From positions 1 to 62,297 of the IMG/VR virus record IMGVR_UViG_3300037493_001386: a DNA stretch of 62,297 nt; one strand, written 5' to 3'. Positions 5,152 through 44,587 of this stretch are shown one piece after another. Positions within the stretch are counted from its first letter, which is position 1, and every line of letters starts with the position of its first letter. The position numbers were made by a program, and so were the translations under genes. Source of the DNA: a virus (Duplodnaviria; Caudoviricetes). The notes under the pieces were generated by a model. It was not told the DNA's origin and searched no databases. It was given only the letters and a program-made list of their open reading frames with translations.

Positions 5152-5455
5152 TTTTGCTGCTGGTATGTATCTGAGTCCATATATGGCAACAAAGCATAGG
5201 TCGCAAAATCCAATAAAAGGATATCCCGATTTATTTATTGCTTTACCTCGTGGAAAATTTGCTGGTCTATTTATTGAAATCAAAACTGAGAAAGCGAATC
5301 CATTTAAAAAGGATGGCACTTTGAAATCTAACGAGCATACAGAAAGACAAGCCGAAGTATTATCAATGCTGAATGAGGTTGGATACTATGCAGTATTTAC
5401 AAGTGGTGTTGACGAAACAATAAAAATTATAGAGAACTATATACATCAAAAATAA
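5072..5455 (+). CDS. VRR-NUC domain nuclease
   Basis: GYPDLFI...FIEIKT...RQ...L...GY motifs; homolog at 40511. Confidence 0.85.
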   Translation: MSHEVEIYKVIARYLSIKYPKVIFRFDFAAGMYLSPYMATKHRSQNPIKGYPDLFIALPRGKFAGLFIEIKTEKANPFKKDGTLKSNEHTERQAEVLSMLNEVGYYAVFTSGVDETIKIIENYIHQK

Positions 5456-5471
5456 TTTTCTATTTTAGCAA

Positions 5472-5581
5472 CATTCAGAGGTGGTATCCTGAATGCAACA
5501 AAAATATGTCGCCCTATGGTGACTGAGAGGCAACGATTAAAATCTGAGCCGATACCACCTCAGTCTTCATAGGGCATTTTT
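5472..5581 (+). ncRNA. Structured leader RNA upstream of the replication initiator (two hairpins plus loop-bulge pairing)
   Basis: Conserved at 43831-43943 with three compensatory base-pair changes; ends in a U tract. Confidence 0.75.
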
Positions 5582-5594
5582 AATTCTTATAACA

Positions 5595-6215
5595 ATGAAT
5601 AATCGGGACACTTGCATTTTTTATCGATCAATGTTTGAATCTATAAAGGAACTTCCAAAAGAGAATCAGGCAGAACTATACAATGCCATATTTGAATACT
5701 CTTTAGATTTTGTTGAACCTGAATTGGCTGGTCTATCAATGACAATATGGAGACTTATAAAGCCAGTACTGGAAAAAGGAAATACTAATTACATTAACGG
5801 AAGCAGACCGAAAGCGAAGCAGATAGTAAGCGAAACCGAAGCGAAACCGAAGCGAAGTAGAAGCAAAAGGCAAGCCTATAAGGATAAGGATAAGGATGTA
5901 GATATAGATAATGATATTATTGTTAAAGCACCATCTTTCAAGGCAATGACTAATGATGACTTAATAAATCAGATCAAACCATTTATAGAAAAGTACGGAA
6001 AGGACACTTGCAATGCTTTCTATTCATACTGGTCGGAACCACTTTCCAATGGTAGGATGAGATTGACAGAACAGAAGGCTTGGGATACCAGTAGAAGACT
6101 TTTCACTTGGAAACAGAGGGAGAAGCAGCCTGAATCTTCATATGTAAAAAAAGTACCAGTGCCTTTCAATCGCAGTAGTCAAGGGCAAACCTATGTAGGG
6201 GATGATGTGGTATAA
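5595..6215 (+). CDS. Replication initiator (DUF6291-like N-terminus, lambda O-like layout)
   Basis: FYRSMFESIKELP...LYNAIFEY N-domain, iteron-bearing linker, FYSYW..W..W C-domain; upstream of DnaB. Confidence 0.75.
   Translation: MNNRDTCIFYRSMFESIKELPKENQAELYNAIFEYSLDFVEPELAGLSMTIWRLIKPVLEKGNTNYINGSRPKAKQIVSETEAKPKRSRSKRQAYKDKDKDVDIDNDIIVKAPSFKAMTNDDLINQIKPFIEKYGKDTCNAFYSYWSEPLSNGRMRLTEQKAWDTSRRLFTWKQREKQPESSYVKKVPVPFNRSSQGQTYVGDDVV
5817..5897 (+). repeat. Putative origin: six AAGCnnA units at 11-bp period, then TAAGGA repeats
   Basis: Units at 5817, 5828, 5839, 5850, 5861 and 5872; period is not a multiple of 3; conserved in B. Confidence 0.7.
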
Positions 6216-6246
6216 AAAAAAATTTAAAAATATTTTGATAAATGTA

Positions 6247-6276
6247 TTGCATATTCAAAAAACTATATTAAGTTTG
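6247..6276 (+). promoter_or_regulatory. Bacteroidota-type promoter
   Basis: TTGCATATTCAAAA...TAAGTTTG. Confidence 0.7.
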
Positions 6277-7121: not shown

Positions 7122-7607
7122 ATGATCAAATCTAAAGTAAATCAATTGTTAAATGATGTATCACATATTTGCGATGTATCTGCAAAGTATTCTACCAAAG
7201 TAAAATCCAAAGACAGACCAGTAATTAAAACTGAAGTAGACATTTATAAATTAATGCATCATTGGTATGCAAATACAGAAATGTTTGAGCAAAGGGAAAT
7301 CTTTTCAGTAGTATTAATGACTCGGGCAAATCAGGTATTAGGAGTTGTAAATTGTGGCGAGGGAGCAGCAACTTCAACTATTGTAGATAAGCAATATATT
7401 GCAAGACTTGCAATTTTGGCAAATGCTCAAGCGGTTGTCTTATGCCACAATCATCCATCAGGTAATATAAAACCCAGCGATGCGGATATAAGGATAACTA
7501 AGGAAATAAAAGAAGCACTTAAGTTATTAGAAATAACATTACTGGACCATTTAATACTAACACAAGACAATGGATTTACTTCATTGGCAGCAGAAGGCTT
7601 AATTTAA
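7122..7607 (+). CDS. radC: RadC-like JAB domain protein (A only)
   Basis: QREIF...CHNHPSG..KPS.AD..IT...LLDHLIL signature. Confidence 0.9.
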   Translation: MIKSKVNQLLNDVSHICDVSAKYSTKVKSKDRPVIKTEVDIYKLMHHWYANTEMFEQREIFSVVLMTRANQVLGVVNCGEGAATSTIVDKQYIARLAILANAQAVVLCHNHPSGNIKPSDADIRITKEIKEALKLLEITLLDHLILTQDNGFTSLAAEGLI

Positions 7608-7613
7608 AATCAA

Positions 7614-8990
7614 ATGACAAACCCACAACAAGCAATAATCGCAATATTAATGACTGGTGAAAACCATCAGGATTTAATGCCACAACTGGAAGAGCATCTC
7701 TTTAATGAGGTGCTCACATCAAGATGCTACAAAGTAATAAAGCGCACTATTGAAAAAGGACAGACACCTAATATGGTTAACTTCTTTAGTACTGCGAATG
7801 AACTTGATAAGTTTACACCTAAAGAAACATCTGCAATAGTTGGCTGGTCTAATAGTCTAACATATAACGAGCCAGTTAATGAATATATTGCAATCCTAAA
7901 GGACAATCATATTAAAAGATCAATAGGTAATATTATTACCGAGCAGTCTTTCGGACTATCAAATAATGTTGATGGCTATACAACTGCAACCGAAATAATA
8001 AAGTCATTAACTAATCTATTAGATACTGGAAGCAACTCAGATAATATTATTGATCTATCGGAATTAACTAATGAAGAAAGGGAATCATACTATCGTAGAG
8101 CAGCACTAACATTATCAGGAAAAACTACTGGATTAAATACTGGATTAAATGCTTTAAATAAATTTACTGGTGGTTTTCATCCTGAGTTTATTATAATTGC
8201 CGGTCGACCATCAATGGGAAAAACGGCATTGGCATTGTTTCACGGAATGAAAAGTGGCGAGGCTGGTATCTACTTTAATCTTGAAATGAATAAAAGCCAG
8301 TTATGCCAAAGATTAATTCTTCAGGAGGCTGGAGACACAATCCATTCTTCAAGACTTCGTGATGGCAATCTTAGCCAATCTGAATTGCACTCTTTTGAAA
8401 AGACTATTGGAAGTATCGAAAAGCAGCCATTCCTGATATATGATAAGGCAAGGTGTGGCGTACACGAAGCAATTAGAGTAATGAAGCGAGAGCATCGGAA
8501 AGGTAGGTGTAAGTGGGCAATAATTGATTACCTACAACTAATGACTATTGAGGGATTCAAAGGTGGCAATCGTGAAGCAGAAGTTGCTGAAATTAGCAGA
8601 ACATTAAAGGCAGCGCAAAAAGAGATTGGAATACCTATAATTGCCTTGGCGCAACTTAGCCGTGAAGTAGAAAAGCGACCTGATAAAAAACCTATACTAT
8701 CAGACCTAAGAGAATCAGGTTCTTTAGAGCAAGATGCAGATAGCGTTGCTTTTGTTTGGAGGCCATCGTATTATGGACTTAATGACGATAATGGCAATCC
8801 ATATACTAATAATATCTTTTATCTTTTTGAGAAGCATAGACAAGGCGCAACTGGTATTGTCGAATTTAGGCACTCACCAAATATGACAAACTTTACAGAT
8901 GTTACCAGTAATGATATTGGCAGCACATTTCTTCCACAACCTAAAGACCTAAGACATTATGCAGACAAAGATTGGGATGTACCATTCTGA
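7614..8990 (+). CDS. dnaB: DnaB-like replicative helicase
   Basis: GRPSMGKT Walker A, IIDYLQL, LAQLSR, SDLRESGSLEQDAD, KHRQG. Confidence 0.95.
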   Translation: MTNPQQAIIAILMTGENHQDLMPQLEEHLFNEVLTSRCYKVIKRTIEKGQTPNMVNFFSTANELDKFTPKETSAIVGWSNSLTYNEPVNEYIAILKDNHIKRSIGNIITEQSFGLSNNVDGYTTATEIIKSLTNLLDTGSNSDNIIDLSELTNEERESYYRRAALTLSGKTTGLNTGLNALNKFTGGFHPEFIIIAGRPSMGKTALALFHGMKSGEAGIYFNLEMNKSQLCQRLILQEAGDTIHSSRLRDGNLSQSELHSFEKTIGSIEKQPFLIYDKARCGVHEAIRVMKREHRKGRCKWAIIDYLQLMTIEGFKGGNREAEVAEISRTLKAAQKEIGIPIIALAQLSREVEKRPDKKPILSDLRESGSLEQDADSVAFVWRPSYYGLNDDNGNPYTNNIFYLFEKHRQGATGIVEFRHSPNMTNFTDVTSNDIGSTFLPQPKDLRHYADKDWDVPF

Positions 8991-9222
8991 ATATATTAAT
9001 TATTTGGAAAAGCATAAAACAGAACCATTTGTAATGTTGGATGAAATGAATCTAACTTATGATCAATTTGAAATGCTATTTAATAACTCATATCCATTTC
9101 GGGAGATGTGGAAAATAGATGAATGTGATTTTAATTACTATGATATCAGAGGTGGCAAGTGCCAGTATGCAAAAGTTTATTACGGAAAAATACATTGCAC
9201 AAACAAGCAATGTAAAACATAA
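8959..9222 (+). CDS. Conserved hypothetical protein, Cys-rich C-terminus
   Basis: Homolog at 46456; four conserved Cys. Confidence 0.7.
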   Translation: MQTKIGMYHSEYINYLEKHKTEPFVMLDEMNLTYDQFEMLFNNSYPFREMWKIDECDFNYYDIRGGKCQYAKVYYGKIHCTNKQCKT

Positions 9223-9239
9223 TCAAAATATTATTATAT

Positions 9240-10373: not shown

Positions 10374-10964
10374 ATGTCAAGCATAAAAACAAAAAACGTA
10401 AAGATTAGCGATATTAAAATAAATCCTAATAATCCAAGACTTATTAAAGATGAGAAATTTAATAAGTTAGTGCATTCAATAAAAGAATTTCCTGAGATGT
10501 TGGCAATAAGACCAATCGTTGTAAACTCAGAAATGGTGGTTATTGGTGGCAATATGCGATTAAAGGCTTGTAAGGATGCTGGATTAAAGGAAGTGCCTAT
10601 AATCATTGCGGATAACCTAACGGAAGAACAACAGAAAGAATTTGTAATAAAAGATAATGTTGGATTTGGAGATTGGGACTGGCAAATTATTGCAGAGGAA
10701 TGGGGAACAGAATCACTGGAAGATTGGGGTTTAGATATACCTAACTTTGCCAATGATGAATTGTTAGAAGAATTTGATACCAAGGCATCAGATATTAATC
10801 TAACTCCAAAACCAACTGATGATGACTATTCAACATTTGAAATGGTTATGCTGCATCAAAATAAATTGCTGCTATTGGAAACATTAAATAAAATAAAAAA
10901 TAACTTCCTATTTGAAAAGCAAGAGGATTCATTAATGGAACTCGTAAGACAATACAATAAATAA
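10374..10964 (+). CDS. ParB/Srx-like N-terminal domain protein
   Basis: NPNNPR, L..SIKEF, RPIVV, IGGNMRLKA, IKDN motifs; TACATTTG promoter at 10362-10369. Confidence 0.85.
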   Translation: MSSIKTKNVKISDIKINPNNPRLIKDEKFNKLVHSIKEFPEMLAIRPIVVNSEMVVIGGNMRLKACKDAGLKEVPIIIADNLTEEQQKEFVIKDNVGFGDWDWQIIAEEWGTESLEDWGLDIPNFANDELLEEFDTKASDINLTPKPTDDDYSTFEMVMLHQNKLLLLETLNKIKNNFLFEKQEDSLMELVRQYNK

Positions 10965-10970
10965 AAACCT

Positions 10971-11765
10971 ATGAAGCAAGAGACACTTTCATTTATTAAT
11001 TTTATTAATCCCGATTCAGGTTTAATATTTAATGATGAGGAACACGATAAATATCCATTAAAATACTATAATGTAATTAATGGCGAAGGCATTGATGTAG
11101 ATGAAAATAAAAGTTACTATGGTTTCGTTTATTTAGGTGAGGCGGTGATCAAAATAAAAGACAATATTCAATCTATACTGCCAAAGGATTCTTACTTTTC
11201 GCATCACGGAGAATTTACTCTTTGTGGCAATTTCAAAGCGGTAATCATTGAGGTAATTACCAGTAAAGGAATATACCTAAAGGAACGATTTAAGGCAATG
11301 ACTGCCATCGGAGGTGTTGTAGAAGATACTGGAAGATTAAAATATATAGATGGATGTACTGATAGTCTATTAATACCACCAGTTAAAAAAGGTAATCCTT
11401 GTTTAAATCATTTGCATTTTCCAAAAGACATTCGACAGACACCTCATACTCACCCAAGCCATCGTGTTGGATTAGTAATTAGAGGGCAAGGAAAGTGCGT
11501 AACACCATTCGGAGATCTTCCATTAAATGAGGGATGCATATTTGTTATTAAAGAATATGACGGCCTTTTAAAAGCGGTTGGTTTGGATGGCAAAATGTAT
11601 GATGCTGGTACTCATAAATTTGATACTAATTTTAGCAGTATGGATGTGATAGCATTCCATCCTGATAGCGACTTTGGTCCTGAAGATGAATTCCATCCAA
11701 TGATTAATCGCACAATAGTAAATGGAATTTCTGCAAAAGACATTGATCAAATAAGAACTAAGTAA
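10971..11765 (+). CDS. Cupin-domain protein
   Basis: QTPHTHPSHRVGLVIRGQG and later HKF metal-binding cupin motifs. Confidence 0.75.
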   Translation: MKQETLSFINFINPDSGLIFNDEEHDKYPLKYYNVINGEGIDVDENKSYYGFVYLGEAVIKIKDNIQSILPKDSYFSHHGEFTLCGNFKAVIIEVITSKGIYLKERFKAMTAIGGVVEDTGRLKYIDGCTDSLLIPPVKKGNPCLNHLHFPKDIRQTPHTHPSHRVGLVIRGQGKCVTPFGDLPLNEGCIFVIKEYDGLLKAVGLDGKMYDAGTHKFDTNFSSMDVIAFHPDSDFGPEDEFHPMINRTIVNGISAKDIDQIRTK

Positions 11766-12940
11766 TGGGAGTAGTTAGAAAGAAAGAATACAAAGAGATT
11801 GATGTATATGAGGAAGCATTAAATCGCATCAGATATATTTACGATAGATTTGATAAAGTAGTAGTTTCATTTTCAGGAGGAAAGGATAGTACTGCCGTTT
11901 TAAATACTGCATTAATAGTTGCCAAAGAAAGAAATAGATTGCCATTGGATGTAGTATTCTTTGATGAAGAAGCAATACATCCACCAACTATTGATTATGT
12001 AAAAAGAGTAAGGGAAAATAAAGATATCAGAATGCATTGGTACTGCTTAGAATTTAAGCATCGAAATGCTTGTTCGAATGAGGAACCATTTTGGTATACT
12101 TGGGATAAAGAAAAGAAAGATTTGTGGGTTATGGAAATGCCTGAGTTTGCAATAACTGAACATCCTAAATTTATTAAGGGAATGAGTTTCCAAGAATTCT
12201 CCCCTTACCTATTTAATAGAACGGATGGCAGCGTTGCAATGCTTACTGGTATCAGAACACAAGAAAGCCTCAGAAGATACCAAGTGATCGCTAAAAAAAA
12301 GAATGATGCATTTATGAATTCAACCAGCGAGTCAGGGCAAAACCAATATAGATGCTTCCCTATTTACGATTGGAGTTCTGAGGATGTATGGTTGGCAGTT
12401 AAAAAATTTGGATGGGATTATAATACCACATACGATATATTTAATCAAACCAAATTAAATAATGATTTTCTGCATCAAAGAGTTTGTCCTCCATATGGAG
12501 AAGAACCATTAAGAGGATTATGGGTTTATGCGGAATGCTTCCCTGAGATGTGGCATAAAATGATTAGTAGAGTGCAAGGTGTTAGTACTGCTTGGAGATA
12601 TGGCAATACAGAACTATATTCTAATGCCAGTAAAAAACCTGATAATAAAACGTACAAAGAGTATTTAAATATTATACTGGATAGTTACGATTATGATAGT
12701 CAGCAAGATGTTAAGAAAACAGTTAATGGATATATCAGAAGACATCAGTCATTAACTAAGCAGAAAATACACGAGGTAGATTGCCATCCATTGAGTGGTG
12801 TTTCTTGGGAGTGGCTATGCAAAGTAACCATACGAGGAGATTTCAAAGGCAGACAGAGTAATATATTAAATACCAATGCCAATAATGTAAGGGAGAAATT
12901 AGGTATTACTTTGGAAGAAGCGGAAAGGATTTATAAATGA
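11765..12940 (+). CDS. ibrA: PAPS-reductase-family PP-loop protein, IbrA/YbdN (DUF3440)-like
   Basis: VSFSGGKDS, FFDEEA, GIRTQES, PIYDWSSEDVW, QRVCPPYG motifs. Confidence 0.85.
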   Translation: MGVVRKKEYKEIDVYEEALNRIRYIYDRFDKVVVSFSGGKDSTAVLNTALIVAKERNRLPLDVVFFDEEAIHPPTIDYVKRVRENKDIRMHWYCLEFKHRNACSNEEPFWYTWDKEKKDLWVMEMPEFAITEHPKFIKGMSFQEFSPYLFNRTDGSVAMLTGIRTQESLRRYQVIAKKKNDAFMNSTSESGQNQYRCFPIYDWSSEDVWLAVKKFGWDYNTTYDIFNQTKLNNDFLHQRVCPPYGEEPLRGLWVYAECFPEMWHKMISRVQGVSTAWRYGNTELYSNASKKPDNKTYKEYLNIILDSYDYDSQQDVKKTVNGYIRRHQSLTKQKIHEVDCHPLSGVSWEWLCKVTIRGDFKGRQSNILNTNANNVREKLGITLEEAERIYK

Positions 12941-14284: not shown

Positions 14285-15559
14285 ATGGCTTATACATTAA
14301 CAGAAACACAAACAATTGCATATGATTATGCCACCAATGGAGATAAAAGAGTTATCTTATTTGGTGGCGCAATTCGTGGCGGTAAAACATATTGGTTGCT
14401 GCTAACATTAACCTCATTATGTTTGGCATATCCAAATAGCAGATGGGTTGTAATTAGAAAAACACTACCTGATCTAAAACGTACAACATTCCCAACATTT
14501 AAATCTATAATGAATGATGGTGTTGGACAATACATAAAGAACTGGAATAGGGATAATGTAGTTACATTTAATAACAACAGCCAATTAATATTTATGGGCG
14601 AGAGTTACGATGATGATAAAGAATTAAATAGGTTTAGGGGATTAGAAATAAATGGTGCTGGATTAGATGAAGTCAACGAGTTACAAGAAGTAACCTTTTA
14701 CAAAGTTCAGGAACGTATTGGTTCTTGGAACAAAGCAGAAGGTCAGCCACCAATAATATGCTTGGCTACTTGCAATCCATCACAAAATTGGGTGAAGACA
14801 TTAATCTATGAAAGGTATAAGTATGGAACGCTTCCAAACAAATGGGCATTCATACCATCAAAGATTACCGACAATCCATATATACCTATTGAGTATCTTG
14901 AATCATTAAAAGAATTGCCACCTATTCAATATGCAAGATTTGTTGAAGGTGATTGGGATGTACTGGATAATGTAGTTAATCCATTCTTGTACGAATGGAA
15001 TGATGAAAAACATATTGATGATAGCATAGAACACAATCCAAATCTACCAACATTTATTAGTGTTGACTTTAATGTTAATCCATTATGCGCATTAATCATT
15101 CAACACGTTGGCAGCGACACACGAATACTGGATGAGATTAAAATAGAAAAGGGCTCAATAGAAGCATTCTGCGATGCCGTTGAGAATTATAATATACCAA
15201 GTGGCTTGATGCGAATAACTGGAGATGCGATGGGCAAAGGCAGTTCAATACAACAACGTGATAACTCTTCTGCATATACTCAAATCAAACGCAAATTTAA
15301 ATTGTCTGATAGTCAAATTATGATACCAGCCAATCCAAGAATATCTAATAGTCGGATAGATTCCAATTTAGCATTAAAAAAATTAAATATTAAAGTTAAT
15401 TCAATCAGGTGCAAAGGATTTATATTTGATGCAAAGCAAGTGCAATGCGATGCGGAAGGTTCGTTAATAAAAACAAATAGGAAAAACCTATCGGAACGTG
15501 CCGATTTTTTAGATTGTTTTCGTTACTTTGTCAATACTATTTTAAAAAGATACCTATGA
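14285..15559 (+). CDS. terL: Terminase large subunit
   Basis: GGAIRGGKT, LDEVNE Walker B, TCNP, DNPY, SVDFN nuclease motif, D.LDC.RY. Confidence 0.95.
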   Translation: MAYTLTETQTIAYDYATNGDKRVILFGGAIRGGKTYWLLLTLTSLCLAYPNSRWVVIRKTLPDLKRTTFPTFKSIMNDGVGQYIKNWNRDNVVTFNNNSQLIFMGESYDDDKELNRFRGLEINGAGLDEVNELQEVTFYKVQERIGSWNKAEGQPPIICLATCNPSQNWVKTLIYERYKYGTLPNKWAFIPSKITDNPYIPIEYLESLKELPPIQYARFVEGDWDVLDNVVNPFLYEWNDEKHIDDSIEHNPNLPTFISVDFNVNPLCALIIQHVGSDTRILDEIKIEKGSIEAFCDAVENYNIPSGLMRITGDAMGKGSSIQQRDNSSAYTQIKRKFKLSDSQIMIPANPRISNSRIDSNLALKKLNIKVNSIRCKGFIFDAKQVQCDAEGSLIKTNRKNLSERADFLDCFRYFVNTILKRYL

Positions 15560-37082: not shown

Positions 37083-37235
37083 ATGAAAAGCCAACAAATT
37101 GCCAATTACATTATGAATCTTTCTAAATCAGTAGGTAAAGATTTAAACTACGCATTATCAATTGTTGAATGGTATTCAGCAACAGACAAGCAAGACAAAG
37201 AAGTTAAATTAATCCTAAATCAAATCTGGAATTAA
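37083..37235 (+). CDS. Small early protein (50 aa) spanning the junction repeat
   Basis: ATG 37083 after the promoter; its 3' part equals window positions 1-106. Confidence 0.65.
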   Translation: MKSQQIANYIMNLSKSVGKDLNYALSIVEWYSATDKQDKEVKLILNQIWN

Positions 37236-37256
37236 TAACCAACTAAGGGAGGCTCA
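37130..37256 (+). repeat. Exact 127-nt direct repeat, copy 2 (A/B junction)
   Basis: Identical to 1-127. Confidence 0.95.
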
Positions 37257-37301
37257 GACCTCACTATATTTTCATTTAATCAATCTCTAAATTTAATCAC
37301 A

Positions 37302-40894: not shown

Positions 40895-41067
40895 TGGAAA
40901 TTGAAGAAAATGAAAACAAAATAATGGTTGAAATAACTCTTATTGAAAAAGATATAAGAAGTATTAAACTTTGGGAAAAACTTGTAAAAGAGCTTGATGT
41001 ATTAAAAGACAATAACTATACAGCAAGAATACTTTTTGATTATATAGAAAAGCATTATGGAATTTAA
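40891..41067 (+). CDS. Small hypothetical protein (58 aa, below the ORF-track cutoff)
   Basis: ATGA overlap with the VRR-NUC stop; open frame MMEIEENENK...HYGI. Confidence 0.55.
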   Translation: MMEIEENENKIMVEITLIEKDIRSIKLWEKLVKELDVLKDNNYTARILFDYIEKHYGI

Positions 41068-41317
41068 AGAAATCAAAGACAAAGAAAAATACTTAAAAAA
41101 GAATTATCCATTTGATGATGTGCCAAAACTAACTGAGATAAAGCATTGTGTTCATTGTGGTCAAAACTTTTTAGTTGGAGATTATAAAGTACATCTTGAG
41201 TATAATTCTTTTGCAAAGAAAAAAATAGAATACATTGTCTGTCCTTATGCACCTGATTGTAGTGGTAGTGTAATTGATTGGTTTACTTTAGAAGATGAAG
41301 ATTTAGATATTGATTAA
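41057..41317 (+). CDS. Zinc-ribbon protein (B only)
   Basis: CVHC...CPYAPDC. Confidence 0.7.
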   Translation: MEFKEIKDKEKYLKKNYPFDDVPKLTEIKHCVHCGQNFLVGDYKVHLEYNSFAKKKIEYIVCPYAPDCSGSVIDWFTLEDEDLDID

Positions 41318-41329
41318 TCAATAAAAAAA

Positions 41330-41409
41330 TTGACACGATGTCAATGGGGTGGGCGGTTGTTACAAATACAAAATAATTTAAGGGAGTAATTGAACTGCCC
41401 ACTTTTTTT
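41330..41409 (+). promoter_or_regulatory. Inverted repeats / long-loop hairpin upstream of the helicase
   Basis: TTGACA-cga-TGTCAA; GTGGGCGGTT...AACTGCCCAC then T7. Confidence 0.45.
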
Positions 41410-41432
41410 AACTCACAATAAAAATAACTACT

Positions 41433-42800
41433 ATGAACGAGTACGAAAAATTTTTAGAACAAAAAAAACATTCAATTGGTAATTTTGGATTTGATGCTAA
41501 TTACATTCCTGATATAGCATTTGACTTTCAAAAGTATATAATTGAGAAAGCAATTAAAAAAGGACGTATTGCAATATTTGCTGATACTGGATTAGGTAAG
41601 ACATTAATTCAATTATCAATTGCAAATAATATTATAAGAGAAACAAATAAGAAAGTATTAATCTTAACACCATTAGCAGTTGCATTTCAATTTATTTTAG
41701 AAGCAGAAAAGTTAGGTATTGATGACATTGAGTATTCAAAGGATGGTAAGCATACTAAGAAAATAGTAATCTGCAATTATGAGAGATTACATTACTTTGA
41801 TTCTAATGATTTTATTGGTGTTATCTTAGATGAAAGTTCAATCTTAAAAAACTTTGATGGTGCTATTAAAAATCAGGTAACAACATTTGTAAAAAAGATT
41901 CCTTATAGATTTTTATCTACTGCTACACCATCACCTAATGACTTTATTGAATTAGGTACAAGTAGTGAGGCATTAGGATATATGGGTTATATGGATATGT
42001 TAGGAAAGTTTTTTAAAAACAATCAAAACTCAGTTGATTCTAATAATAGAAACATTGGTGAAAAGTTTTACTTAAAACCCCACGCTGAAAAAGATTTCTT
42101 TGCATGGGTTAATCAATGGTCAATTATGGTTAAGATGCCGTCTGACATAGGATTTTCAAATGAAAGATATAATCTACCTGAGTTAATAGTTAATAAGCAT
42201 ATTGTAGAGAATCAATCAATGATTGATGCTTATGGTCAAATTCAATTATTTACACCAGTAGCAAAGTCAATGACTGAGGTAAGACACGAACAAAAGAAAA
42301 CAGAATCAATTAGATGTGAGAAAGCAATTGAATTAGCTAATGGTAAAACAAGTGTATACTGGTGCAATACTAATAATGAAAGCAGCATCTTAAAAAGTTT
42401 AGATAAGGAAGCAGTAGAAATTATAGGTAGTCAGTCAATAGAACGTAAAGAAGAGATTCTATTAGCATTTGCAAATGGTGATATTAAAAGATTAATCACT
42501 AAAGCTAAGATGACATCTATGGGTCTTAACTGGCAGCATTGTAATCACTCTGTATTTTTTCCTACATGGTCTTATGAGCAATATTATCAAGCTATAAGAA
42601 GGTTTTGGAGATTTGGTCAAAAGAATGATGTTACTATTGACATGGTTATTTCAGATGGTCAAACAAGGGTAATAGAAGCATTACAACAAAAAACAAAAAA
42701 GGCAATTGAATTACATGAGAATCTAACAAAAAATGTAAATAGTACATTTACAAACATCACAAAAGAGTTTAACCAGCAAATAATCAAACCTAAATTTTAA
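41433..42800 (+). CDS. SNF2-like superfamily 2 helicase (B only)
   Basis: ADTGLGKT, ILDESS, TATP, GLNWQ, QAIRRFWRFGQ. Confidence 0.9.
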   Translation: MNEYEKFLEQKKHSIGNFGFDANYIPDIAFDFQKYIIEKAIKKGRIAIFADTGLGKTLIQLSIANNIIRETNKKVLILTPLAVAFQFILEAEKLGIDDIEYSKDGKHTKKIVICNYERLHYFDSNDFIGVILDESSILKNFDGAIKNQVTTFVKKIPYRFLSTATPSPNDFIELGTSSEALGYMGYMDMLGKFFKNNQNSVDSNNRNIGEKFYLKPHAEKDFFAWVNQWSIMVKMPSDIGFSNERYNLPELIVNKHIVENQSMIDAYGQIQLFTPVAKSMTEVRHEQKKTESIRCEKAIELANGKTSVYWCNTNNESSILKSLDKEAVEIIGSQSIERKEEILLAFANGDIKRLITKAKMTSMGLNWQHCNHSVFFPTWSYEQYYQAIRRFWRFGQKNDVTIDMVISDGQTRVIEALQQKTKKAIELHENLTKNVNSTFTNITKEFNQQIIKPKF

Positions 42801-42805
42801 TAACT

Positions 42806-43819
42806 ATGAACAACAAAGTAAAAGACCAAATTGTAACAGACAGATACGCTATGTATAATAGTGATTGTATGTTAGTCATGCCAACTATTGAAGATGAATC
42901 AATAGACCTAAGTGTATATAGTCCACCATTTGCAGGATTATATAACTACTCAAGTTCAGAAAATGACTTTAGTAATTGTGAAAGCAAAGAACAATTTTTA
43001 GAGCAGTATGAATTTCTTATTAAAGAAGTTGCAAGGGTAACTAAGAAAGGTAGAATAACTGCAGTTCATTGTACTGATGTATTTGATAATACTTGTAGAC
43101 TTTGGGATTTTCCAAATGAGATTATTAGACTGCATACTAAATATGGTTTTGAATATCGTAATAGAATTACAATTTGGAAAGAGCCACTAAAAGTTAGAAT
43201 GCGTACAATGGTACAATCATTAATGCATAAATTCATAGTAGAAGATTCTACAAAGTGTTTTACTGCTATGCCTGACTATGTATTAATATTTACTAAGAAA
43301 GGAGATAATCAAGTCCCAGTTACACATGAGTTTGGAATTAATCATTATGCTGGTGAAATTCCAATCTTACCAAATATTTTAAGAGCATGGAATAATGCTA
43401 ATAAATCAGATTTAAATGAAGAGCAACTATGGGTGCATCTAAATAATATAAATGAAGATGGTAAGATAACTAAGTTGAATCATTATATATGGCAGCGTTA
43501 CGCATCAAGTGTATGGGATGACATTAGAATTGATAATGTACTACCATTTAGAGACTCTAAAGAAGAGGATGATGAAAAGCACGTACACCCACTTCAATTA
43601 GACGTTATTGATAGGATAGTTGAATTATACTCAAATCCTAATGAAGTTGTATTAACTCCTTTTATGGGTGTAGGTAGTGAGGTGTTTAGTCCAGTTTCAA
43701 TGGGTCGTAAGGCAATTGGTATAGAGTTAAAAGATTCTTACTTCAAACAAGCTAAGTTAAACCTACAAGAAGCAGATAATAGATTTAAAAAAGAAAGTAA
43801 ATTTTTGAAATTATTTTAG
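42806..43819 (+). CDS. Beta-class N4-C/N6-A DNA methyltransferase (B only)
   Basis: SIDLSVYSPPF (motif IV) precedes HVHP...VLTPFMGVGS...GIEL (motif I). Confidence 0.85.
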   Translation: MNNKVKDQIVTDRYAMYNSDCMLVMPTIEDESIDLSVYSPPFAGLYNYSSSENDFSNCESKEQFLEQYEFLIKEVARVTKKGRITAVHCTDVFDNTCRLWDFPNEIIRLHTKYGFEYRNRITIWKEPLKVRMRTMVQSLMHKFIVEDSTKCFTAMPDYVLIFTKKGDNQVPVTHEFGINHYAGEIPILPNILRAWNNANKSDLNEEQLWVHLNNINEDGKITKLNHYIWQRYASSVWDDIRIDNVLPFRDSKEEDDEKHVHPLQLDVIDRIVELYSNPNEVVLTPFMGVGSEVFSPVSMGRKAIGIELKDSYFKQAKLNLQEADNRFKKESKFLKLF

Positions 43820-43830
43820 TAACTTAGCAC

Positions 43831-43943
43831 CATTCAGAGGTAGTATCCTGAATAGATTGTAAAACATTGTCACCCTATGGTGACTGAGAGACTAAGAGTA
43901 AAATCAAGGTCGATACTACCTCAGTCCTCATAGGGTATTTTTT
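43831..43943 (+). ncRNA. Structured leader RNA upstream of the initiator (homolog of 5472-5581)
   Basis: Same stems, with compensatory changes. Confidence 0.75.
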
Positions 43944-43948
43944 ATGAT

Positions 43949-44587
43949 ATGAATAGCAGAGATACTTGCATCTTTTATCGGTCAATGTTTGAATCAATAA
44001 AAGAACTACCTAAAGAGAATCAGGCTGAGTTATACAATGCCATATTTGAATACTCATTAGACTTTGTTGAGCCTACTTTGAGTGGTCTATCAATGACCAT
44101 ATGGAGATTGATAAGACCAGTATTAGAGAAAGGTAATACTAACTATATCAATGGAAGTAAACCGAAATCAAAGCAAACAATAAGCGAATTAGAAGCGAAA
44201 GTGAAGCGAATTAGAAGCGAAAGCCAAGCCTATAAGGATAAGGATAAGGATAAGGATAAAGATGAAGATATAGATAAGGATAAAGTTAAAAGTGCTAAAG
44301 CACCATCATTCAAATCATTTACACCTCAAGACCTCATTAACCAAATGAAACCACTAATAGATAAGTTTGGCAAAGATACTTGTAATGCTTTCTACTCTTA
44401 TTGGTCTGAACCATTAGCCAATGGTAAGATGAGATTGACAAATGAAAAGGCTTGGGATACACATAGAAGGTTAGCATCTTGGAAACAAAGAGAAAAACAA
44501 CCTACTACCAACTTTGTCAAACAATTACCAGCGGTCTTCAATCGTAGTTCACAAGGTCAAAAATATGTAGGTGACGATGTGATTTAA
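43949..44587 (+). CDS. Replication initiator (DUF6291-like)
   Basis: Homolog of 5595. Confidence 0.75.
   Translation: MNSRDTCIFYRSMFESIKELPKENQAELYNAIFEYSLDFVEPTLSGLSMTIWRLIRPVLEKGNTNYINGSKPKSKQTISELEAKVKRIRSESQAYKDKDKDKDKDEDIDKDKVKSAKAPSFKSFTPQDLINQMKPLIDKFGKDTCNAFYSYWSEPLANGKMRLTNEKAWDTHRRLASWKQREKQPTTNFVKQLPAVFNRSSQGQKYVGDDVI
44171..44258 (+). repeat. Putative origin iterons
   Basis: AAGCnnA at 44171, 44182, 44193, 44204, 44215 and 44226, then TAAGGA repeats. Confidence 0.7.

Follow-up and report, generated by a model that had tools for sequence, protein, structure and literature searches.

The 62,297-base viral record IMGVR_UViG_3300037493_001386, analysed here over its whole length (henceforth the window), was found by self-comparison to consist of two related phage genomes lying head to tail, since positions 1-37130 and 37130-62297 are co-linear over long blocks of 70-81% identity. 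In each of these phages, whose genomes are about 37 kb long, an element of about 100-105 nt occupies the gap ahead of a gene encoding a DUF6291 protein. The two copies, A (5472-5581, plus strand) and B (43831-43943, plus strand, with the same layout as A; 43820-43943 including its promoter-like box), lie at matching positions, and as the genome halves are co-linear they represent one locus in two phages rather than an intragenomic duplication. A preliminary description of this DNA had proposed that the locus encodes a covarying pseudoknotted RNA switch controlling a replication initiator. The hairpins, stems, loop and bulge on which that proposal was built are all in place in both copies, and only the stem of hairpin 1 in copy B needed correction, having 6 bp instead of 7. 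The features of the element are as follows.

Copy A
5461 to 5468, plus strand: -7 box, TATTTTAG, matching a TAnnTTTG-type box
5472 to 5495, plus strand: hairpin 1, with a 7-bp stem formed by CATTCAG (5472-5478) and CTGAATG (5489-5495)
5479 to 5488: loop of hairpin 1, AGGTGGTATC, 10 nt comprising 2 free bases and the 8-nt pseudoknot strand
5481 to 5488, plus strand: 5' strand of the pseudoknot, GTGGTATC, the exact complement of 5551-5558
5496 to 5510, plus strand: A-rich linker with an AAAA core conserved in alignments A1, A3 and A6 (see below)
5511 to 5575, plus strand: hairpin 2, -27.7 kcal/mol on its own
5511 to 5518 and 5568 to 5575: outer stem, GCCCTATG paired with CATAGGGC
5521 to 5527 and 5559 to 5565: inner stem, GACTGAG paired with CTCAGTC
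5529 to 5531 and 5548 to 5550: apical stem, GGC paired with GCC
5551 to 5558, plus strand: bulge GATACCAC, the 3' strand of the pseudoknot
5576 to 5581, plus strand: U tract ATTTTT, directly 3' of the outer stem and resembling that of an intrinsic terminator

Copy B
43820 to 43827, plus strand: -7 box, TAACTTAG
43831 to 43854, plus strand: hairpin 1, 6 bp, the outermost pair being a C/A mismatch
43840 to 43847, plus strand: 5' strand of the pseudoknot, GTAGTATC, the complement of 43912-43919
43872 to 43936, plus strand: hairpin 2, -26.4 kcal/mol
43912 to 43919, plus strand: bulge GATACTAC, the 3' strand of the pseudoknot
43937 to 43943, plus strand: U tract ATTTTTT

Hairpin 2 is composed of an 8-bp outer stem, a 2x2 internal loop, a 7-bp inner stem, an unpaired A, an apical stem-loop and, on its 3' side, the 8-nt bulge. 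Three differences between copies A and B are compensated, as had been reported: a G-C pair is replaced by A-U in the loop-bulge helix and again in the first pair of the outer stem, and the apical GGC/GCC becomes GAC/GTC. The apical tip of hairpin 2 (5529-5550 in the window; also seen in A3 and A6) varies in length and carries an extra 20-nt hairpin in some subfamilies; GAAA or GUAAAA loops frequently cap it, with A/G-rich internal loops on their flanks, and these could make docking contacts with other parts of the fold. Hairpin 2 of both copies also contains an 18-codon open reading frame (ORF; MVTER...PQSS*; 5516-5572 and 43877-43933), probably a by-product of the stem sequences, since its ATG is absent in the GGC-type subfamilies.

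A covarying fold with a strictly Watson-Crick pseudoknot

The family to which the two copies belong was assembled along two routes. Anchoring on the DUF6291 protein yielded 33 viral loci, in 30 of which the element lies upstream of the gene, either directly or with at least one intervening ORF; two of the other three loci are cut off at that point, and one (L034) lacks the element. The 23 distinct copies from loci anchored in this way form alignment A1. A covariance model built from A1 minus the pseudoknot was then run on loci from two pattern scans of IMG/VR. Pattern 1 fixed five of the eight bases of the 5' pseudoknot strand, the two preceding loop bases and parts of hairpin 1 and the inner stem, leaving the bulge free; it returned 95 stretches, comprising 78 true matches and 17 G+C-rich chance matches. 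Pattern 2 fixed the inner stem and the U tract only, leaving both pseudoknot strands free, and added at least 82 new loci, at least 67 of them true matches. Including the window and six protein-anchored loci, the family spans at least 152 contigs and 130 distinct sequences, with one copy per contig and two in the window's record. Alignments A3 and A6 hold 72 and 58 distinct rows, respectively.

Folding of the single sequences gave the same nested structure for both copies (A, -37.5 kcal/mol, z -4.06; B, -32.9 kcal/mol, z -2.78), and RNAalifold independently predicted this nested fold from the 23 sequences of A1. In the three alignments 99.4-99.6% of the paired cells hold a base pair (A1 with the loop-bulge helix added, 99.6%; A3, 99.4%; A6, 99.6%), compared with 86-89% in shuffled alignments, and pairing falls to 30-48% (30-45% for A1) when the partners are slid by 1-3 columns. 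None of 500 shuffles attained the observed percentage paired or the covariation score, for A3 and A6 as well, a count that does not equal a probability because the alignment rows are related and pattern-selected. Changes on both sides were seen in 17-19 of the 33-34 pairs (17 of 33 in A1) and are distributed over all helices: hairpin 1 has them in 5-6 of its 7 pairs, with plus-strand G-U pairs frequent; hairpin 2, in which 99.7-100% of cells are paired, has them in 5-8 of 15 pairs; and the loop-bulge helix is paired in 100% of cells in all three alignments. The covariation that the preliminary description had noticed between two copies is therefore strong in the larger alignments. Several helix positions are invariant, and few unpaired bases are conserved.

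The direction of the putative RNA is indicated by the covariance-model scores, 52.5-147.5 bits on the gene strand against 27.6-48.6 bits on the opposite strand, which folds poorly and shows no TAnnTTTG box in the linker by eye, and by the G-U pairs common in the three nested helices, which favour the plus strand as RNA. We conclude from these comparisons of sequences that the element is a structured RNA read from the plus strand, with a real, covarying loop-bulge pseudoknot.

The loop-bulge helix stands apart from the remainder of the fold. Its 8-nt complementarity is perfect in all 128 distinct elements that have both strands, and these represent 20 sequence types. It is the sole helix with zero G-U pairs, zero mismatches and zero one-sided changes, whereas elsewhere G-U pairs occupy one inner-stem pair in 27 of the 58 rows of A6, one hairpin-1 pair in 21 of those 58 rows, and one hairpin-1 pair in 20 of the 72 rows of A3. 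Five of the eight pseudoknot positions covary in A6, in which both strands were unselected, with 2-4 pair types each, and a member found by the model alone (L005) has a compensated change at a further, sixth one. The predicted geometry is that of an H-type pseudoknot: loop 1 is short, with 2 nt (AG, AA, TC or AC) in 127 of the 128 elements, loop 2 has 0 nt, and loop 3 is long and starts with the A-rich linker, which would form part of this loop. Because no gap interrupts the bulge strand between the apical and inner stems, the inner stem and the pseudoknot helix have one continuous strand in common and could stack on one another, and the pseudoknot helix and hairpin 1 could likewise stack. An extension of the helix to 9-11 bp, possible in copy A, was rejected as unconserved, given that loop 1 varies and the ninth pair is absent in L005. 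The only member with a 9-bp pseudoknot is L296 (9824-9947, minus strand; loop GTGAGAACC, bulge GGTTCTCAC), in which each strand carries one inserted base and the two insertions compensate each other.

This helix also changes fast. Among close relatives, defined by at most 5 differences in unpaired columns, double changes per pair-cell amount to 0.11 in the pseudoknot and 0.04 in the nested helices of A3, and to 0.10 and 0.005 in A6, where the inner stem was fixed by the search pattern; per pair, double changes are 2.6 to 20 times commoner in the pseudoknot than in the nested helices. Single-sided changes among the same relatives, on this scale, come to 0 in the pseudoknot and 0.03-0.05 in the nested helices. 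The pseudoknot type differs in 26 of 65 near-identical sequence pairs; L045 and L098, for instance, differ in 1 of 90 other columns, yet in two pseudoknot pairs, with flanking DNA about 94-95% identical. On a tree computed without the pseudoknot columns, which has limited resolution as it was built on about 100 columns, the three common variable pseudoknot pairs change 20, 15 and 13 times and stem pairs 3-18 times, the higher stem counts arising mostly via G-U states. The same types recur across scaffold subfamilies, and no column of the alignment of downstream proteins tracks the type. Computed duplex energies average -10.5 kcal/mol for cognate strands, -6.2 kcal/mol for strands differing at one position and -3.2 kcal/mol for those differing at two. 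The two phages of the window carry different pseudoknot types. It had been suggested that the loop-bulge change could give phage-specific recognition; the variation of the helix between phages fits this idea, and recognition itself is a prediction from the sequences.

The ends of the element point to its place in transcription. A TAnnTT(T/A)G box, which we take to be the -7 element of Bacteroidota promoters (consensus TAnnTTTG), ends 3-4 nt 5' of hairpin 1. Among 72 distinct upstream sequences there were 71 TAnnTTTG matches (one mismatch allowed) at offsets of -2 to +2 from the start of the model, and this offset is fixed although the other upstream sequence differs between subfamilies. The promoter-like site noted earlier in both copies thus recurs among these upstream sequences, and transcription should start at the foot of hairpin 1. 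At the other end, the 8 nt that follow the outer stem include 5 or more T in all 71 distinct rows of A3, which was not selected on the U tract, and 66 of the 71 rows have a run of at least 5 T, so that the terminator-like 3' end first seen in copies A and B is found throughout this alignment. A G+C-rich stem and U tract upstream of an ORF fit a predicted intrinsic terminator or attenuator. In copy A the ATG, at 5595, follows the U tract, and in 68 of 69 cases the distance from the bulge to the next ORF is 24-36 nt. As this leaves no room for a second promoter, the module would be expressed from the element's promoter only by read-through of the hairpin and U tract. In every case promoter box and U tract point in the direction of the genes. 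No leader ORF is conserved; copies A and B contain different short ORFs, and other subfamilies lack them.

Possible functions and their precedents

The reading that we favour, with confidence and doubt evenly balanced, is that the element is a cis-acting leader or attenuator RNA of the replication module whose pseudoknot constitutes a specificity code, possibly also used in trans. A transcript begun at the foot of hairpin 1 would fold into hairpin 1 and the bulged hairpin with its U tract, and eight of the ten bases of the hairpin-1 loop would pair with the 8-nt bulge, the resulting pseudoknot locking the fold. The bulged hairpin and U tract would stop part of the transcripts, yielding a short RNA, while a set fraction would read into the DUF6291 and DnaB genes. 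Translation or mRNA stability may also be affected, because the folded block abuts the start region.

More tentatively, the 8-bp code may act in trans: leaders of matching type, whether nascent or read-through, would be recognised by the short RNA or by one processed half, providing feedback on replication-gene expression and sparing co-infecting relatives mutual interference. Such meetings between same-type molecules are suggested by the all-or-none, fast switching of the helix, which sequence-based recognition would explain best. Slightly more speculative, and in our view rather unlikely, is that the helix serves virulent phages as an RNA barcode for kin recognition. The terminated short RNA would then accumulate as the genome is copied, act only on leaders with the same code and set the timing or level of replication-gene expression, each of the at least 20 types being blind to co-infecting relatives.

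Several observations weigh against the attenuator with a specificity code. A conserved antiterminator was not found: two candidate registers of a hairpin over the 5' strand of the terminator (GTCACC..GGTGAC or GCCC..GGGC) were 67% and 62% paired, near the shuffled and slid controls, and were set aside as lacking covariation support, and no further candidate was seen. The word switch used in the preliminary description is hence not borne out by a conserved alternative structure in either register, and the pseudoknot need not regulate the terminator hairpin, because the two structures are compatible. Easy action in trans is argued against, unless the RNA is processed, by a closed cis pseudoknot, which the geometry favours and which would occupy both strands, and a second target site was not found in either phage genome. 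The A and B types are only half orthogonal, because the A loop would still pair with the B bulge (-8.2 kcal/mol with one G-U, versus -8.5 kcal/mol for the B cognate), while the B loop on the A bulge reaches -3.9 kcal/mol. Other helices vary much too, some pairs changing 12-18 times on the tree, and the close-relative counts come from non-independent pairs; part of the pattern could accordingly stem from rapid compensated drift, phage populations being very large. Lastly, the alignments come from pattern-selected loci: pattern 1 constrained the 5' pseudoknot strand at five of its eight bases, and pattern 2 constrained the inner stem.

The element might instead be purely structural and act in cis without any specificity, as a compact boundary that terminates or insulates transcription or, in a variant, as a 5' stabiliser or translational operator of the replication-gene mRNA, bound for example by a phage protein. 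Taken together, we consider these possibilities realistic, although unlikely on balance. The variety of the 8-bp helix would then reflect fast compensated drift at a few unconstrained positions, in keeping with the strong covariation of the other helices, and the intramolecular H-type geometry, with 2 nt in loop 1 and 0 nt in loop 2, and the want of another target site in the phage genomes agree with a function confined to one molecule. The block also sits directly 5' of an A/U-rich stretch and start codon, as does the pseudoknot operator of T4 gene 32 as described in a survey of viral RNAs (PMC10690425). Drift of this kind does not readily account for a helix that has neither a G-U pair nor a mismatch in 128 sequences when G-U is common elsewhere in the same RNA, for its excess of double changes among close relatives (2.6- to 20-fold over the nested helices) or for the recurrence of the same types in several scaffold subfamilies. 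A protein-specific operator code is not apparent either, because the type is uncoupled from the downstream protein sequence.

We regard as improbable that the element is a free-standing small RNA gene whose location is incidental and whose product acts on targets elsewhere in the host or phage or serves as a host-factor decoy. Its own promoter box, terminator-like end, compact and probably stable fold and typical small-RNA length of about 105 nt would suit such a gene; against this, the spacing to the start codon is short and fixed (24-36 nt from the bulge in 68 of 69 cases) and leaves no space for a second promoter, the element stays first in the module despite inserted genes, a hypervariable seed is ill suited to a conserved host target, and neither loop nor bulge sequence occurs elsewhere in the window, as a complementary site in trans, beyond chance. 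A metabolite riboswitch or self-cleaving ribozyme with a pseudoknot is very improbable. The topology recalls pistol ribozymes and H-type riboswitches, in that a 5' hairpin loop pairs with the internal loop of a second hairpin beside a terminator and several helix positions are invariant, but 20 helix types in its core would be too many for a ligand pocket, and the few conserved unpaired bases and variable loop 1 (AG, AA, TC or AC) argue against a riboswitch, as do the failure to match Rfam at E-values up to 10 and the lack of a conserved competing structure. Hardly credible, finally, is a site acting as DNA, either a protein-binding operator or origin made up of the inverted 8-mers or a hairpin in single-stranded DNA at an origin. 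The 8-mers adjoin replication genes and form an inverted repeat free of G-T pairs, hence symmetric on both strands; yet three further helices covary with many G-U pairs valid on the plus strand only, scores on the opposite strand are far lower, promoter box and U tract are gene-oriented without exception, the arms lie about 62-66 bp apart, and the type does not follow the sequence of the adjacent protein.

A search of the whole window against Rfam 15 gave no match at gathering thresholds, in line with the preliminary remark that the element had not been recognised as a named family, and for three family members the best matches at E-values up to 10 (E at least 0.24) were to unrelated microRNA, small nucleolar RNA and ctRNA models, the ctRNA_pND324 match being noise (20.8 bits against a cut-off of 45, E 0.96, opposite strand). 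Literature searches returned no description of the motif, and the term DUF6291 in 0 papers. The motif may be among the 8,495 unnamed candidate structured RNAs that a 2023 survey reports to have predicted from IMG/VR intergenic regions (PMC10690425). Already known is the kind of element, a pseudoknotted RNA leader before replication genes; new, as far as checked, are the family itself, its occurrence in Bacteroidota-type phages that look virulent, and a same-strand helix that is hypervariable and restricted to Watson-Crick pairs.

Short RNAs that act on the transcript of their own operon have precedents in IsrK, which acts on its own read-through mRNA, and in the CI RNA of P4, which acts on the leader of the P4 replication operon (PMC4825925). 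In the account given there, seqA, seqB and seqC of P4 CI are same-strand complements in the untranslated leader of an operon of replication genes, as in our element, and the proposed outcome is premature transcription termination, similar to the attenuation that the element may exert (PMC4825925). P4 is, however, a temperate satellite whose processed CI RNA pairs with two outside sites, whereas both strands of the element lie within about 75 nt of one RNA, fitting a cis pseudoknot, and neither lysogeny genes nor prophage copies were found for it. IsrK, from the Gifsy-1 prophage, combines a promoter, a small RNA, its own terminator and read-through, with the short form acting on the long form, as might be the case here, but it is also reported to adopt alternative structures around the ribosome-binding site (PMC4825925), and no conserved alternative was found in the element. 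There is no sequence or model similarity between P4 CI and the element and no match to the Rfam C4 or isrK models, and in contrast to the hosts of those RNAs the phages here look virulent. By analogy, the element resembles P4 CI and IsrK in logic, not in ancestry; like the P4 CI, c4 and IsrK RNAs, it has same-strand complements in one transcript that covary between relatives. P4 relatives differ in their pairing sequences, much as the present phages do, and two-base compensated differences between the c4 RNAs of P1 and P7 give heteroimmunity, another likeness to the element.

Plasmids and phi29 offer further parallels. Upstream of the replication gene rep of IncI-alpha and IncB plasmids, a 5' hairpin loop pairs with a distal sequence and the loop sequence defines the incompatibility type, which is alike; in those plasmids, by contrast, the ribosome-binding site of rep lies next to the distal strand, control depends on a leader peptide, and RNAI, an antisense transcript of the opposite strand, competes. 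The distal strand of the element is a bulge located 24-36 nt 5' of the start codon, and the comparison with IncI and IncB drawn in the preliminary description is weakened, as neither a conserved leader peptide nor, by eye, an antisense promoter was seen. In pT181 and pIP501 a terminator likewise lies in the rep leader before the start codon, and RNA-RNA kissing decides both expression and incompatibility, through an antisense RNA and a choice between preemptor and terminator; neither an antisense RNA nor such an alternative is evident in the element. The phi29 pRNA has a hairpin loop complementary to a bulge loop of the same molecule, a match kept while its sequence differs between phages, as in our element. 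Its loops pair between molecules over 4 bases to form a ring on the portal, in phages with protein-primed DNA; the helix of the element has 8 bp in a geometry suited to one molecule and is tied to replication genes, a terminase gene is present, and the Rfam pRNA model had no match in the window.

RNA control of phage replication genes has been described for a few temperate phages and satellites of enterobacteria (P4, P1/P7, Gifsy-1) and for plasmids. If the proposed function is true, it would extend this logic to a large group of uncultured, apparently virulent phages with Bacteroidota-like promoters, for which, to our knowledge, almost no gene regulation is known. The element is also a tidy natural example in which a conserved RNA scaffold carries a single hypervariable helix limited to Watson-Crick pairs, allowing a direct test of whether RNA-RNA specificity shapes competition between co-infecting phages. 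Its at least 152 contigs, 130 distinct sequences and strong covariation make it a candidate new Rfam family, and it offers 20 natural, partly orthogonal 8-bp pairing modules. Should the barcode exist, lytic phages of Bacteroidota-like hosts would possess an equivalent of plasmid incompatibility groups that works on the same strand and needs no antisense RNA.

Lifestyle, gene setting and downstream proteins

Neither an integrase (PF00589) nor an HTH_3 domain (PF01381) was matched in the window. Every ORF of at least 100 amino acids in the first 12 kb is on the plus strand, as are all but two of the 32 such ORFs overlapping 10-38 kb. In 185,579 species genomes, three pattern scans met with nothing but chance matches inside coding regions, hence no copy of the element and no prophage copy, and a protein-anchored scan of species genomes found one distant DUF6291 relative, from Prevotellaceae, which lacks the element. 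Cultured phages gave no DNA match, and the window's DnaB protein has only distant relatives among them (at most 35% identity). The phages therefore look virulent, or their hosts are unsampled, absence from species-genome collections not amounting to proof of a virulent lifestyle. Apparent virulence weakens the immunity-RNA side of the earlier comparison with P4 CI and P1 c4, which presupposes lysogeny, and leaves the mechanistic analogy standing.

The genes that follow the element are these.

Phage A
5595 to 6215, plus strand: DUF6291 gene, 206 amino acids, the first gene 3' of the element (Pfam DUF6291, E 9.8e-15)
7122 to 8990: RadC and DnaB helicase genes, after the DUF6291 gene (Pfam RadC, E 3.6e-34; DnaB_C, E 2.8e-73)

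Phage B
43949 to 44587, plus strand: DUF6291 gene, 212 amino acids, homologous to the 5450-6260 region of phage A
45111 to 46487: DnaB helicase gene, homologous to 7613-9238

Upstream of the element lie recombination-type genes (exonuclease-like, RecE-like and resolvase- or endonuclease-like). Phage B carries an insertion (41057-43819), absent from phage A, that separates the resolvase-like gene from the element and holds an 86-residue ORF and genes for a 455-residue helicase (phrog_62) and a 337-residue DNA methyltransferase (phrog_67); homology between the two phages restarts at 43808, immediately 5' of the promoter-like box. Farther downstream, at 10374-12940, a gene with a ParB-like nuclease domain and a PAPS-reductase-like gene (phrog_2302, E 4e-92) are separated by 806 nt that include a 264-residue ORF of no known family (10971-11765), and the large terminase gene follows at 14285-15559. 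Positions 1-167 and 37130-37299 are 94.7% identical by self-comparison; the two-genome record could be a chimeric assembly joined via a common end region or a genuine concatemer or tandem.

The preliminary description had called the first downstream gene a replication initiator. Its position before DnaB points in that direction, as do two leads from the Atlas, one cluster joining DUF6291 and DnaB_2 (PF07261) and feature neighbours with Lin1244_N, families that resemble DnaD-like organisers. Every source names the protein only as hypothetical, including all 120 of the 120 DUF6291 relatives listed; Pfam gives DUF6291 as its sole domain, NCBIfam and a profile search of the PDB gave nothing, and Foldseek found no match at E up to 0.001 to an AlphaFold model (pLDDT 65) with two helical domains and a disordered linker. 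A role as replication initiator is accordingly no more than presumed here.

The cluster that holds the window's DUF6291 gene accounts for 46 of the 69 ORFs downstream of family members. The others are small ORFs of no known function (48-110 amino acids) or inserted HNH, helicase or C5-methylase genes, and gene insertions do not displace the element from the front of the module. In three relatives the first gene after the element encodes, in place of DUF6291, an HNH endonuclease (L058, 2880-3410, minus strand), a ResIII/DEAD helicase (L066, 1233-2744, plus strand) or a C5 cytosine methylase (L072, 12154-13200, plus strand), so that the site right after the terminator-like end seems to accept gene insertions. 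The proteins encoded behind ten near-identical elements (L045, L047, L057, L062, L067, L073, L098, L102, L107 and L128) have at least two unrelated N-terminal halves and a common C-terminal tail (..KQP..TRASMGVKME), a pattern suggestive of domain shuffling in which the conserved tail may interact with a partner, for example the helicase.

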